A DNA stretch of 64,000 nucleotides, from IMG/VR virus record IMGVR_UViG_2718218396_000003; one strand, written 5' to 3'. The stretch is from a virus (lineage: Duplodnaviria; Heunggongvirae; Uroviricota; Caudoviricetes). Below, piece after piece: positions 12,001 to 18,000 of the stretch; position 1 is the stretch's first letter, and each line of letters opens with the position of its first letter. Made by a program: the position numbers.

Positions 12001-15000
12001 AAACTCAACAATGAGTTTCAGCGCAACAGAATTATCCGGAGTCTGGATTTTAAGTGAAGGAGTGAGCATGAGCGACCTATCATTAACCCAGCCAAAGCTA
12101 AAAGAATGTCCGTTTTGCGGCGGTAATGCTCGTCTGTGGGTTGAGGCCGGAATAAATATTGATGTGTGGGGCTATGCAGAATGTGACCTCTGTGAAGCCA
12201 GGGTGGCATGGGCACCATCAGTTGCTGCGGCTACTGAAAAATGGAACCGGAGAGCAGGAGATGAAGCAAACCTTTCTGCTTCGCAACGAAGCAATCAGAA
12301 ATAACGCCATAGACGCCATTCTCTCACTACCCATCGACGACAAGTCACCCCACGAAGTCCACGTTAAAGAACCCAAGCGCAGCAAAGCGCAGAATGACCG
12401 CATGTGGCCGATGCTGAACGATGTTTCGCGTCAGGTGCTATGGCATGGTCAACGGCTGGCGCCGGAAGACTGGAAAGACCTGTTCACTGCCCTGTGGCTT
12501 AAGACCAAAAAACTGGAGCAAAGAAGTGCGCCTGGTATCGACGGTGGCGTTGTCATGCTTGGCGTGCGTACCAGCAAAATGCGAAAGGCCAGCATGACTG
12601 AGCTTATCGAAATCATGTTCTGGTTCGGCTCAGAGCGCAACGTGCGGTGGAGTGATGACTCCCGGCGAGAGTATGAATGGTCACAACGAAAAGGGAAGGC
12701 TGCATGACTATCAAATCAAATACGCCAGCACACGACAAGGACTGCTGGCAAACGCCGCTCTGGCTTTTTGATGCGCTGGATATTGAGTTTGGATTCTGGC
12801 TGGATTCAGCTGCGAGCGACAAAAACGCTCTGTGCGCTCACTGGCTAACTGAGGCTGACGACGCGCTAAATTCTGAGTGGATAAGCCACGGTGCAATCTG
12901 GAATAACCCACCGTACAGCAATATCAGGCCGTGGGTGGAAAAAGCCGCTGAGCAGTGCATACAACAGCGACAGACGGTAGTGATGCTTGTGCCAGAGGAT
13001 ATGTCTGTCGGATGGTTCAGCAAGGCTCTGGAGAGTGTTGACGAAGTTCGCATCATCACTGATGGACGGATTAATTTTATCGAACCATCGACAGGGCTGG
13101 AGAAGAAGGGAAACAGCAAAGGCTCAATGTTGCTGATTTGGCGACCGTTCATCAGTCCTCGACGGATGTTTACTACCGTATCCAAAGCGGCATTGATGGC
13201 GATCGGGCTGGGCGTCAGGAGGGCTGCATGAGGCGACAGCGACGAAGTATCACCGACATCATCTGCGAAAACTGCAAATACCTTCCAACGAAACGCTCCA
13301 GAAATAAACGCAAGCCAATCCCAAAAGAATCTGACGTAAAAACCTTCAATTACACGGCTCACCTGTGGGATATCCGGTGGCTAAGACATCGTGCGAGGAA
13401 AACAAGGTGATTGACGTGATGATTTATTCGGGGCTATATTCCTCAAACGCCAGCAAAATCTGGCGTCGGGATTGGCGTCCTGGATAGAGACCGCGACAGA
13501 TACACGCCGCGAGCGTGTTTTTTATTGTCGTATGCACGCGCACATCTGAATTATGGTGGGCTGTGTGGGGGCGGAGAGATCCGCGCCGGTCGGTTTCCCG
13601 GTTACGCCAACCCTGCACAGTTCACCACCAGACGATTGGCGTCGTCGGTGGTGAGTTATTAAGAAACCACCAGAGGGCGTCATTATGACAACTAAAATTT
13701 CTGTTGAAACTCTCTCCCCGATCACCCATAACCAGATTCCTGTTATTACCACCGAACTTTTGGCGCAGCTTTACGGCACTGAGCCGGTGCGTATTCGCCA
13801 GAATCATCATGAGAACAAAGTACGCTTCGTTGAAGGGAAACACTTTTTCAAAGTTGTTGGTAATGACCTTAAAGAATTGCGGGTAGCTTTAAACTACTCA
13901 CAAAATTTGCGGGTTACTTTAAGTAACTCACAAAATTTGCGGGTTACTTTAAGTAACTCACAAAATTTGCAACCATCTTTAAGAGGGTTACAAATTTCCC
14001 CGAAAGCCCGCTCCCTCATCCTCTGGACAGAACGCGGCGCAGCCCGTCACGCAAAAATGCTCGAAACCGATCGGGCGTGGGAAGTGTTCGAAAAACTGGA
14101 AGACTGCTATTTCAGCCAGTGCGAGAAAAATACTGGCAAACAAGAGAAGAAGCTCAACGGGCTTTCCGCAAAAGAAACAGACAGCCTTGTATGGCTGTGG
14201 GATTATGCCAACCGCTCACAGGCATTGTTCCGTGAGTTGTATCCCGCATTAAAACTGATTCAGTCTGGCTATTCCGGCATATGCCACGACTACGGCTATG
14301 AGTTCTCGTATATCATCGGGAGGGCGAGGGGCGTTTTAATTAATCACACGCGGGATATAGATATTTATGAGCCTGACGGGCCGACGAACCTTCTGGCATG
14401 GGAAAGGCTTAAGAACAAAGAGTTGCCGCCTTCACTGCATCGCTACTGACAATTGACAACTTAACAAACCCAGCTTCGGCTGGGTTTTTTATTGCTGAAT
14501 TTTCAATGTGAGAGGACATGACAATGAATGAGCTGATAAATAGCAATGCCATCAAAATGACAAGCATTGAAATCGCTGAGTTGGTGGGAAGCCAACACGG
14601 TAATGTCAGAATATCAATAGAACGTCTGGCAAAGCGTGGGGTGATTCAACTTCCTTCAATGCAAAAAGTTGAAAATAAACAAACAATTAGCCCTAACAAA
14701 TTCACAAGCGTGTATATATTCGAAGGCGAACAAGGTAAGCGAGACAGCATTATTGTCGTCGCTCAGTTGTCGCCGGAATTCACCGCTCGCCTTGTTGACC
14801 GCTGGCGAGAACTCGAAGGGGCAACCGCGAAAATACCACAAACCTTTTCTGAGGCATTGCGCCTTGCGGCCGACCTTGAAGACCAGAAGGCTGAACTGGA
14901 GAAACAGCTTGCTCTCGCAGCACCTAAAGTTGAGTTTGCCGATCGAGTTGGCGAGGCCAGCGGAATTTTGATTGGAAACTTTGCAAAGGTTGTTGGTATT

Positions 15001-18000
15001 GGTCCAAACAAACGGTTTGCGTGGATGCGCGATCACAAAATCCTTATTGCTTCAGGTGCCCGGCGCAATGTGCCAATGCAGGAATATATGGATCGCGGCT
15101 ATTTCACAGTGAAAGAAACAGCGGTCAATACAAATCACGGAATACAGATATCGTTCACCACAAAAATCACCGGGCGTGGTCAACAGTGGCTGACAAGAAA
15201 GCTGCTAGATAACGGAATGCTTAAAGTAACAGGGGAGGCTGCTTAATGGCTAAACCAGCGCGAAGGAAATGCAAAATCTGTAAGGAATGGTTTCACCCGG
15301 CATTCTCAAATCAGTGGTGGTGCAGCCCGGAACACGGAACTAAATTAGCACTCGAACGACGAAATAAAGAACGCGAAAAGGCGGAAAAAACAGCAGAGAA
15401 GAAACGACGACGAGAGGAGCAGAAACAGAAAGATAAAATTAAGATTCGAAAACTCGCCTTAAAGCCCCGCAGTTACTGGATTAAACAAGCCCAACAAGCC
15501 GTAAACGCCTTCATCAGAGAAAGAGACCGCGACTTACCATGTATCTCGTGCGGAACGCTCACGTCTGCTCAGTGGGATGCCGGACATTACCGGACAACTG
15601 CTGCGGCGCCTCAACTCCGATTTGATGAACGCAATATTCACAAGCAATGCGTGGTGTGCAACCAACATAAAAGCGGAAATCTCGTTCCGTATCGCGTCGA
15701 ACTGATTAACCGCATCGGGCAGGAAGCAGTAGACGAAATCGAATCAAACCATAACCGCCATCGCTGGACTGTCGAAGAGTGCAGGGCCATCAAGGCGGAG
15801 TATCAACAGAAACTTAAAAAACTGCGAAACAGCAGAAGTGAGGTTGCATGAATATCTACGAAAGAATTGATGGCAGCAAATACCGAAATATTTGGGTAGT
15901 TGGCGATCTGCACGGATGCTACACGAACCTGATGAAAAAACTGGAGACGATAGGATTCGACACCAAAAAAGACCTGCTTATCTCGGTGGGCGATTTGGTT
16001 GATCGCGGTACAGAGAACGTAGAATGCCTGGAATTAATCACATTCCCCTGGTTCAGAGCTGTACGTGGAAACCATGAGCAAATGATGATTGATGGCTTAT
16101 CAGAGCGTGGAAACGTCAATCACTGGCTGCTTAATGGCGGTGGCTGGTTCTTTAATCTCGATTACGACAAAGAAATTCTGGCTAAAGCTCTTTGAACCGC
16201 CCCGGTTTTCCTGGAGAGTGTTTTATCTGTGAACTCAGGCTGCCAGATCATCGTTTCCGATGGAAGCATAATAAGCTTTTTCTGCTTCTGCCGGAGGAGT
16301 ATGGCCCAGCCTTCCCAGCAATCGTCGATTGTTATACCAGTCCACCCACGTTAGTGTGGCCAGTTCCACTTCTGCACGGTTTTTCCAGCTCTTACGGTGT
16401 ATTACCTCCGCTTTGTAAAGACCATTGATGCTCTCAGCCATCGCGTTGTCATACGAGTCGCCTGTACTCCCTGTTGATGCCAGTAATCCGGCTTCTTTTA
16501 GTCGCTCCGTATAGGCCAGTGACACATACTGAGAGCCTTTATCGCTGTGATGGATGGTGCCAGACGGACGACGGGCCCACAACGCCTGCTCCAGCGCATC
16601 CAGCACGAATGTCGTTTCCATAGACGATGAGACCCGCCACCCCACGATGTATCCGGCAAACACATCAATGATAAACGCCACATAGACGAAGCCCTGCCAT
16701 GTGCTGACGTAAGTAAAATCAGCCACCCACAGCTGGTCAGGTCGTTCTGCCACGAACTGACGGTTTACGCGGTCGCCTGCGGCAACGGCTTTCCGGCTGA
16801 TGGTCGTACGGACCTTTTTACCCCGGAGAACACCGGCAAGTCCCATAACCGCCATGAGACGTGCCACTGTACATCTGGCCACCCTGATTCCTTCCCGTAA
16901 CAACTGACGCCAGACTTTACGCACACCGTACACCTGATGATTTTCATCGTATACGCGCTGTATCTCTCTCTTCAGCCAGTCGTCGTGCTGCGCACGGGCA
17001 CTGCGTTTATCCGGATGATGTCGCTGTTGCTGACAATGGTAATACGTTGACGGGGCAATATGCAGTTCGCTGCATACCGGTCCGACCCCGTACTGCTCAC
17101 GCAGCTTATCCAGCAGTGGCATCATTTTTTCCAGAGGCGGTCGAACTCCGCCTTCGCAAAATAAGCGGAAGCCTGGCGAAGGATATCGTTACTGCGGCGC
17201 AGTTCACGATTTTCACGTTCCAGCTCTTTCAGACGCTGACGTTCAGCGCTGGTGAGCCCACCATCACCGCCCCCGGTATCCCGCTCATGCTGGCGAACCC
17301 AGACACGCAGAGTCTCCGGCGTACAGCCAATCTTTGGGGCAATGGAACAAATTGCCGCCCACTGTGAGTCATATTCATCCTGACTTTCCAGAACCATACG
17401 AATCGCCCGCTGACGGACTTCGGGGGAAAAACGAGTATTTTTAGTCATCCTGTTTACCTCTTTCTCAGGGAGTTTAGTCTCCAGGATTTCCGGGGCGGTT
17501 CACTTGCCCATAAAGCAGATGAACTTCCGTTAATCATCGAACTGGTGAGTAAAGGAAAAAAATATGTCATCTGCCACGCCGATTATCCTTGTGATAAATA
17601 CGAGTTTGGAAAGCCAGTTGATCATCAGCAGGTAATCTGGAACCGCGAACGAATCAGCAACTCACAAGACGGGATCGTGAAAGAAATCAAAGGCGCGGAC
17701 ACGTTCATCTTTGGTCATACGCAAGCAGTGAAACCACTCAAATTTGCCAACCAGATGTATATCGATACCGGCGCAGTGTTCTGCGGAAATCTCACATTGA
17801 TTCAGGTACAGGGAGAAGGCGCGTGGGCATAAGAGAACTAAACCTCACCAAAGAACAGCATGAGTGGCTGAATGGCTGGCTTGAACTGTGGGGCGCATGG
17901 GTTTATTCAGGTCGTCTGGAAAAGCGCATGAGCAGCGTAATAGCTAAATTCATGGAGAGCGTGGAGCCGGGAAGAGTTATGACAAGGCCAATGTGTAATG

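Follow-up and report, generated by a model that had tools for sequence, protein, structure and literature searches.

A probable RNA-gated antirepressor cassette, with roi beyond its terminator, in the nin region of an Stx2c prophage

In the prophage Gifsy-1 the promoter of a small RNA (sRNA), IsrK, drives the operon orf45-anrP, and the long RNA that results is untranslated (Hershko-Shalev et al. 2016, PMC4825925). Short IsrK supplied in trans raises anrP translation more than 100-fold by way of orf45 translation, pairing with the 3′ region of orf45 through G28/G31 and C162/C159 – b1 with b′ in the terms used below; expression of AnrP lifts repression of the early operon of Gifsy-1 and brings about prophage induction, and deletion of the isrK promoter (P_isrK) abolishes induction in stationary phase (PMC4825925). 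IsrK and STnc1160, a C4-type RNA, are highly transcribed and abundant in lysogens (PMC7067206). In phages P1 and P7 the c4 RNA blocks expression of ant at its ribosome-binding site (RBS) and sets heteroimmunity (PMC12197685). Here we analyse a stretch of 64,000 nucleotides (nt) of viral DNA (Caudoviricetes; IMG/VR record IMGVR_UViG_2718218396_000003), called the window throughout, in which two genes, designated A and B, lie between ninE and ninG. Our best explanation, which as a whole we hold with a probability of roughly 0.7, is that this region is a mosaic insert of two separate units in the nin region of a Shiga toxin (Stx) 2c prophage of the phage 1717 type: unit 1 (13411-14491) would be an antirepressor cassette that is autonomous and gated by RNA, of the kind known from Gifsy-1 isrK and P1 immI, and unit 2 would be roi, insulated from unit 1 by a terminator.

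Both genes and both RNA families involved are already known, and the arrangement Ant-then-Roi is in print for phages of this family: in Smith et al. (2012, PMC3430580) Ant is a "lytic induction enhancer" with Roi downstream, and phage 1717 is listed explicitly. A study of strain EDL933 by RNA sequencing and ribosome profiling has isrK (twice) and C4 of Rfam among its annotated non-coding RNAs. In the literature on this phage group we found no published link between the nin-region Ant of Stx phages and IsrK/C4. What we add is modest, namely a tie between this Ant and the Gifsy-1 IsrK/C4 riboregulatory cassette.

The leader of gene A and its counterparts

The non-coding stretch upstream of gene A is probably the regulatory core of unit 1, a predicted self-contained RNA switch. 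Its parts, with the gene and terminator that follow, are listed here; Rfam was run at gathering thresholds (isrK 50 bits, C4 45 bits).

13411-13684: non-coding stretch of 274 bp between ninE and gene A
13411-13440, plus strand: P_isrK-like sigma-70 promoter, TTGACG-18 nt-TATATT, 10 of 12 consensus positions
13447-13523, plus strand: IsrK-type sRNA of 77 nt, equivalent to the c4-a1b1 element (Rfam RF01394, 74.7 bits, model positions 1-77, full length)
13454-13460: loop of IsrK hairpin 1, CAAAAUC
13472-13477: b1, UUGGCG, in IsrK hairpin 2
13502-13523: intrinsic terminator forming the 3′ end of IsrK (terminator scan)
13549-13632, plus strand: C4 antisense-type RNA, homologue of Salmonella STnc1160 (Rfam RF01695, 66.7 bits)
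13553-13654, plus strand: upstream open reading frame (ORF) of 33 codons, positional counterpart of Gifsy-1 orf45 (from translation of the sequence)
13592-13597: a′ loop of C4, GGUUUC
13605-13610: b′ of C4, CGCCAA
13636-13682, plus strand: target and RBS region
13636-13641: b2, UUGGCG
13663-13668: a2, GAAACC
13673-13677: Shine-Dalgarno (SD) sequence of gene A, GAGGG
13685-14449, plus strand: gene A, 254 amino acids (aa), Pfam ORF6N 2.2e-18 and P22_AR_C 1.3e-23
14466-14491, plus strand: strong intrinsic terminator in the gap between gene A and roi, a 9-bp stem and a T-run (−15.1 kcal/mol, z = −4.6)

An additional, permissive scan placed the c4-a1b1 model over the 5′ half of IsrK at 45.9 bits, just below its cut-off of 46.7. 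Gifsy-1 gives the same three Rfam hits (isrK, C4 and c4-a1b1) and isrJ besides, at 100.3 bits, whereas the window is without an isrJ match downstream (none in 13300-15400 at E ≤ 1). Between the leader and the isrK-orf45 region of Gifsy-1 the mean column identity is 89%, and the promoter hexamers, the terminator – which in Gifsy-1 is leaky – b1/b′/b2 and the SD-AUG context are identical. The order of the elements is also common to the two: promoter, IsrK with its terminator, C4-type RNA (STnc1160), an upstream ORF that starts at the same AUG, and an ORF6N-type gene. The position differs, the Gifsy-1 cassette being downstream of Q and that of the window in the nin region, upstream of Q. Rfam detects only the one IsrK/C4 cassette in the window.

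The predicted promoter has its −35 hexamer exactly at the ninE/ninF-type junction and finishes 6 nt upstream of the 5′ end of IsrK. The junction of the cassette falls directly after GGTGATTGAC, the first bases of ninF in phage HK022, and it is this common sequence that provides the TTGAC of the promoter. In about 60 unique upstream sequences from related leaders TTGAC and TAnanT are kept and the flanks vary.

The minimum-free-energy structure of the C4 RNA is that of the Rfam model (−44.5 kcal/mol; z = −4.2 against shuffled sequences), and its first hairpin shows compensatory substitutions relative to Gifsy-1. Two of its short sequences have complements at the RBS of gene A, a′ that of a2 and b′ that of b2, and a hairpin predicted at 13637-13682 pairs the SD of gene A (−23 kcal/mol; z = −4.75 against shuffles). 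The a′/a2 pair is GGUUUC/GAAACC in the window versus CGGUGAU/AUCACCG in Gifsy-1. Unconstrained RNAduplex energies of C4 with its flanks were tried and discarded as uninformative, because they ignore intramolecular structure.

The upstream ORF opens in the context AUUAUGGUGGG, the same as in Gifsy-1, and gives no Pfam match. In Gifsy-1 the stop of orf45 overlaps the AUG of anrP (AUGA); in the window a 2-nt difference leaves 33 codons and brings the stop inside the 5′ arm of the RBS hairpin, 30 nt before the ATG of gene A at 13685. As a separate observation, the region of the C4 a′ loop, CCGGTCGGTTTC (13586-13597), is 92% complementary over 12 nt to GAAACCGATCGG (14063-14074) inside gene A; the partner lies in the conserved LETDRAW codons, and the match, which may be due to chance, is longer than that to the 6-bp a2.

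Two exact-pattern scans of viral contigs yielded more than 200 loci with related leaders. Across 62 distinct loop/target combinations, with many different loops, the loop of C4 hairpin 2 is complementary to a site 27-31 nt past b2, next to or over the SD, and contiguous pairing between loop and target averages 9.7 bp for cognate against 5.9 bp for non-cognate partners. Moreover, b1, b′ and b2 vary jointly, and all 85 leaders with a recognisable C4 belong to one of four types (UUGGCG/CGCCAA, UUAGCA/UGCUAA, UUUGCA/UGCAAA and UUGGCA/UGCCAA). This covariation shows that the RNA pairings are under selection.

Two further candidates were tried against the same loci and rejected. Pairing of the IsrK hairpin 1 loop ("a1") with the C4 loop, as in P1, showed no covariation (4.75 bp cognate, 4.85 bp non-cognate); the loop itself is CAAAAUC, or UAUAAAG in some loci, and is nearly invariant although the C4 loops differ completely (L003-L213 in our numbering of the loci), and the P1 label "a1" is unsuited to it. 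Nor did orf45 hold up as conserved, whether for coding or for coupling: where it is not fused in frame, the relatives vary widely in its length and in the place of its stop; the authors of the Gifsy-1 study likewise found its nucleotides conserved and its peptide not (PMC4825925). In a large subgroup with Rha-type genes (for example L005, L008, L013 and L049) an AUG on the 5′ side of the C4 stem, 138 nt upstream of the gene, shares the gene's reading frame with no stop between them, and the "upstream ORF" would there amount to an N-terminal extension.

A 290-bp leader query matched 2507 of 5426 complete E. coli genomes, at up to six places in each; in 904 of the 2507 the match covered at least 80% of the query. 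Annotations of the E. coli genes downstream read ORF6N, Ant, P22AR-C, Rha, Ash or Icd-like. In the viral contigs the products of the regulated genes either have a head of the ORF6N, Rha or Bro-N kind, P22_AR_C being present in some and absent in others, or are small proteins of 64-81 aa. From the covariation data and this range of genes we conclude that the cassette is a 5′ regulatory module, portable and specific to type, that serves many genes of the ORF6N, Rha and Bro-N kinds and occurs in some form in nearly half of complete E. coli genomes. A single viral contig may hold two C4-type cassettes. L046 has two cassettes 3.2 kb apart (C4 b′ sites at 4115-4128 and 7374-7387), both with the IsrK hairpin 1 motif, of the same b-type and with different a′/a2, an arrangement that bears on cross-talk versus insulation; L099 has two genes under cassette control, whose starts on the reverse-complement strand are near 6228 and 7094.

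Gene A, roi and their setting

The genes around the leader, and one feature within gene A, are as follows.

12261-12707: ninB (local gene order)
12704-13231: dam (local gene order)
13228-13410, plus strand: ninE, the left flank (Pfam NinE 8e-44)
13877-13970, plus strand: in-frame 30-bp tandem repeat, 3.1 copies, in the ORF6N domain of gene A (Tandem Repeats Finder; repeat family D1)
14518-15246, plus strand: gene B (roi), 242 aa, ANT/KilAC 2.4e-31, with Phage_pRha below cut-off
15246-15851, plus strand: ninG, the right flank (Pfam NinG 1.8e-90), its start overlapping the stop of roi

Gene A is a chimera, with an AnrP-like N-terminus joined to the C-terminus of P22 Ant. Its residues 1-153 are 56% identical to Gifsy-1 AnrP (BLASTP E = 1e-52, with a 28-residue gap), and over its last 104 residues the identity is 82.7% with authentic P22 Ant and 81.7% with a second Ant encoded in the tail region of the window. 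Both gene A and AnrP are ORF6N proteins; their C-terminal domains are unrelated, gene A having that of P22 Ant, together with a 28-aa repeat insert, and AnrP its own. By Pfam, gene A has ORF6N plus P22_AR_C instead of the P22 Ant architecture, and lacks P22_AR_N. Searches of PDB sequences with the gene A and gene B proteins gave no match.

The tandem-repeat insert is missing from AnrP and from Ant of the Stx phage phi24B, and its copy number differs among relatives, which have 1 or 2 strict units in genes of 672 to 762 nt. Each unit encodes 10 residues; the two best-kept units each contain the 15-bp palindrome GTTACTT-T-AAGTAAC, and the flanking ones are degenerate. The repeat may be a slippage-prone variable-number tandem repeat or an embedded protein-binding array.

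Phage phi24B is one of the closest systems known, as is the Ant of phage 2851 reported by Strauch et al. in 2008. Phage phi24B has the same order as the window (ninE-leader-ant-roi-ninG); its Ant does not differ from gene A beyond about residue 120, and has an N-terminus nearer to AnrP and free of the repeat insert; and its leader, about 73% identical to that of the window, differs in a′/a2 and b1/b′/b2, and would accordingly be heterospecific. In uninduced phi24B lysogens ant RNA is weakly present; deletion of ant leaves superinfection unaffected, and reduces late expression from PR′ after norfloxacin to about 30% of wild type, which complementation restores (Fogg et al. 2011, PMC3064807).

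Gene B is the orthologue of roi. Over 242 aa its product shows 82% identity to the ORF that HK022 has between P and Q, in which the pair of domains is the same (ANT/KilAC and a sub-threshold Rha in each), and it shows 99% identity to the Roi proteins of 933W and phi24B; from HK022 Roi it diverges most in the N-terminal ~60 residues. HK022 has roi in the same slot just upstream of ninG, directly after ninF, whereas in the window roi follows the ant cassette and its terminator. The gap between terminator and roi contains a TTGACA, and the promoter scan reports no promoter-like site there; roi is probably made only from N-antiterminated PR transcripts, since the strong terminator insulates it from unit 1. 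HK022 Roi is said, in work by Clerget and Boccard from 1996, to bind a site in its own gene beside one for integration host factor (IHF), and to block lytic growth in IHF mutants.

An earlier note on this DNA had described two antirepressor-like genes, the first Roi/Ant-like and the second Rha/KilAC-like, and a leader of ~270 bp, in place of ninF between ninE and ninG. Both genes are there and intact, after a non-coding stretch, and profile search with Pfam finds antirepressor-family domains in each; both also fall in anti-repressor families of PHROGs, and the annotation of phage 1717 calls the two genes in this gap Ant and Roi. The first gene is indeed Ant-like but is not Roi-like, the name Roi belonging to the second, for which KilAC is secure and the Rha match stays below cut-off (27.2 bits against 29.9). 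The leader exists too; it precedes the first gene, and with isrK and C4 of Rfam within it is not a plain 5′ untranslated region (UTR). As to ninF, lambda has NinE-NinF-NinG at this position and HK022 has ninE-ninF-roi; because of the HK022 order we take it that only ninF was swapped, for the ant cassette, and that roi is a normal occupant of the slot. To count Roi itself as an antirepressor proved unwarranted: papers that cite the HK022 work (one being PMC3430580) present Roi as a DNA-binding protein affecting lytic growth, and "antirepressor" is only the name of its Pfam family. In the view we favour, Roi would be a DNA-binding modulator of lytic growth and not a demonstrated antirepressor.

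In a sequence search, positions 13100-15400 had 100% identity with Stx2-converting phage 1717 and equally with many chromosomes of E. coli O157:H7, and the likeness is therefore far beyond chance. Comparison of the whole window likewise points to a 1717-type Stx2c prophage, the differences being mostly insertion sequences. There are three copies of IS629 (6631-7947, 16193-17502 and 38501-39811, with three Rfam ALIL hits). The second splits ninI, which lies downstream of ninG and before Q, and sits in the path of PR transcription toward Q and stx2c; phage 1717 has no IS629 there, and carries in its terminase region an ISEc8 and an IS629 that are both missing from the window. Further Rfam hits are a lambda cIII thermoregulator element (2110-2168), three tRNA genes upstream of stx2c (18625-18865) and the sRNA STnc100 downstream of the stx region (158.5 bits, 20276-20487).

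Proposed working and competing explanations

The model we propose for unit 1 leans on Gifsy-1. The conserved sigma-70 promoter would fire even in the lysogen; most transcripts would end at the weak terminator to give the 77-nt IsrK, and some would read through into the C4-type structure and ant. The long RNA would be translationally silent, both because the folded C4 stem would hide the start of the upstream ORF and because a′ and b′, with the complementarity and covariation described above, would pair with a2 and b2 beside an RBS that is itself held in a stable hairpin. As IsrK accumulates, b1 might pair with b′ and with the 3′ strand of the C4 stem and so open the upstream ORF, a step whose geometry differs from that in Gifsy-1; ribosomes stopping in the 5′ arm of the RBS hairpin could then melt that arm and expose the SD of ant. 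Ant, to judge from AnrP, phi24B Ant and P22 Ant, would antagonise the prophage repressor, leading to lytic growth and to more late and Stx expression. During induction, on the lambda model of N antitermination, transcription from PR antiterminated by N would also read through the cassette.

A number of observations weigh against this proposal. The coupling device of Gifsy-1, the overlap of stop and start, is not conserved in the window, and in the relatives the length of the upstream ORF lies anywhere between 15 and 72 codons, unless the ORF is fused in frame. The pairing of a′ with a2 in the window spans 6 bp, the shortest of the set; IsrK alone is no more stable than its shuffles (z = −0.87); and since the hairpin 1 loop does not covary with the C4 loop, the a1 logic of P1 does not carry over. 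AnrP matches only the N-terminal domain of gene A, and P22 Ant only the C-terminal one. Constitutive STnc1160, moreover, did not antagonise IsrK in Gifsy-1 but enhanced its toxicity (PMC4825925). Finally, neither AnrP nor phi24B Ant is known to bind a repressor, a point that also speaks for the DNA-binding alternative below.

The simplest alternative, implied by the earlier note and by Fig. 1 of Fogg et al., holds that the two genes are plain delayed-early nin genes co-transcribed from PR, with the 274 bp no more than a passive 5′ UTR or a mosaic joint. Between ninE and ninG the two genes do share a strand and belong to the PR operon; Fogg et al. put ant ahead of qut and anticipate its expression after induction (PMC3064807); and a generic promoter scan found no enrichment over shuffles (3 sites against 3.9 expected). 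Yet this supposed UTR holds two Rfam families above their gathering thresholds, and its promoter hexamers, kept in some 60 variants, are identical to those of the experimentally active P_isrK of Gifsy-1. The covariation, which shows selection on RNA pairings, argues against passivity, as do the ant RNA detected in uninduced phi24B lysogens (PMC3064807) and the existence of the cassette outside the PR operon, downstream of Q in Gifsy-1 and in many other contexts. We consider this alternative very improbable. More is to be said for the idea that gene A, like Roi, is a regulator of lytic promoters or of replication that binds phage or host DNA directly through its ORF6N/Rha/KilAC-type domains, and that "antirepressor" is a mere family label. 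The HK022 Roi, the only Roi studied, is described as a DNA-binding protein affecting lytic growth in the papers that cite the work on it, and the cassette precedes genes whose ORF6N, Rha or Bro-N heads are interchangeable. Such heads are, following Iyer, Koonin and Aravind in 2002, reportedly regarded in general as DNA-binding modules. On the other hand, gene A shares its C-terminal domain, at the 82.7% identity given above, with P22 Ant, whose binding to repressors has been defined biochemically; AnrP expression frees the early operon of Gifsy-1 from repression and leads to prophage induction (PMC4825925); and the phenotype of the phi24B ant deletion fits relief of CI repression (PMC3064807). 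That gene A acts on DNA rather than on a repressor thus strikes us as unlikely.

A last alternative shifts the emphasis from the resident prophage to its neighbours: induction across prophages would be the main role, Ant striking the repressors of other lambdoid prophages in one O157 cell and IsrK switching on ant translation in those of the same b-type, so that the pool of prophages is induced in concert. P22 Ant, which binds the P22 repressor and makes it inactive, does the same to lambda CI, according to the work cited in PMC3064807, and PMC3121763 describes trans-acting antirepressors that coordinate the Gifsy prophages. The leader has its matches in 2507 of 5426 complete E. coli genomes, with up to six places in each, and contig L046 supplies a case of two cassettes that share a b-type and differ in a′/a2. 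Some cross-phage action, as the earlier note had supposed, is indeed plausible if P22 Ant and the antirepressors of the Gifsy prophages are taken as a guide. As the main role, however, we find it doubtful: the window has a single IsrK/C4 cassette, the differences in a′/a2 and b-type between phages suggest insulation as much as cross-talk, and deletion of ant in phi24B was without effect on superinfection (PMC3064807). An RNA-gated ant cassette followed by a terminator-insulated roi remains the explanation that we prefer.

If the tie to IsrK/C4 holds, it would explain the ant RNA of uninduced phi24B lysogens, and it leads one to expect that Ant is controlled post-transcriptionally, in a way that may respond to stress and be independent of RecA. 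Salmonella IsrK rises when Mg2+ is low (PMC4825925), and we therefore considered whether the RecA-independent induction of Stx2 phages by ethylenediaminetetraacetic acid (EDTA) might act through the cassette; the data come from phage 933W, which over the stretch of its record that we checked (12000-26000) has a P63C-domain gene at the place of the ant cassette, and the idea was rejected.

Two Ant genes and the comparison with P22 and P1/P7

The second Ant of the window belongs to a module that lies among tail genes.

42773-44368, mixed strands: P22 immI-like module between tail genes
42773-43117, minus strand: Arc-fold gene, Mnt-like (Pfam Arc; 48.8% to P22 Mnt)
43201-43374, plus strand: Arc-fold gene, Arc-like (Pfam Arc; 30% to P22 Arc)
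43364-44368, plus strand: tail Ant (P22_AR_N 1.2e-39, P22_AR_C 1.5e-29; 55.6% to P22 Ant over 315 aa)

The earlier note had spoken of a mnt-arc-ant module here and, counting genes A and B with it, of at least three antirepressor-type proteins. Both statements are borne out by Pfam: two Arc-domain genes (E-values 1.8e-20 and 1.4e-4) accompany a gene with P22_AR_N and P22_AR_C. Gene order and orientation are those of P22 mnt-arc-ant and the Ant is of full-length P22 type; the likeness of the two small proteins to Mnt and Arc is weak (30-49% over ~40 aa). In P22 a gap encodes the sar antisense RNA, whereas here 11 nt (43364-43374) are common to the arc-like gene and ant, which leaves no room for a sar-type antisense gene; with that gap missing, control of the tail ant is probably by protein only. 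Gene A, for its part, has the Ant C-terminal domain in common with P22 immI, but its control would be by RNA and not by Mnt/Arc. "Layered" control of lysogeny, as that note had put it, is then a fair and plausible description, because the nin-region gene has the IsrK/C4 switch and the tail gene a divergent Arc-fold pair as in P22 immI.

A broader proposition, which is speculative and in our judgement unlikely, is that this Stx prophage has two copies of the same Ant effector domain, each under a lock unrelated to the other. One lock would be the IsrK/C4 RNA switch, which has a promoter of its own that is active in the lysogen and comes in exchangeable specificity types (a′/a2 and b1/b′/b2); the other would be a protein switch of the Mnt/Arc type. 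Were this true, the RNA switch would let Stx phages reach induction and toxin production independently of SOS and in response to physiology, and "RNA immunity groups" would decide which co-resident prophages of O157 are induced together. Stx production depends on prophage induction, and a switch that tips an Stx prophage into lysis would therefore bear on the severity of disease.

Set beside immI of P1 and P7, the cassette has several features in common with it. A C4-fold RNA lies upstream of an ant-type gene and on the same transcript; two short sequences of that RNA are complementary to sites at the RBS; and a second copy of the b-site stands upstream. Sequence variants, too, define types of specificity comparable to the heteroimmunity of P1 and P7. 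The differences are no less clear. An icd-like gene is missing, and all that overlaps C4 is the 33-codon ORF; the upstream "a1" loop is invariant and not complementary to a′; the regulated gene is ORF6N plus P22_AR_C and not the KilAC-type Ant of P1; and the upstream element has a terminator of its own and, in the one system tested, Gifsy-1, yields an activating sRNA. The cassette would thus resemble the c4 system of P1 and P7 in its working without being a simple copy of it.

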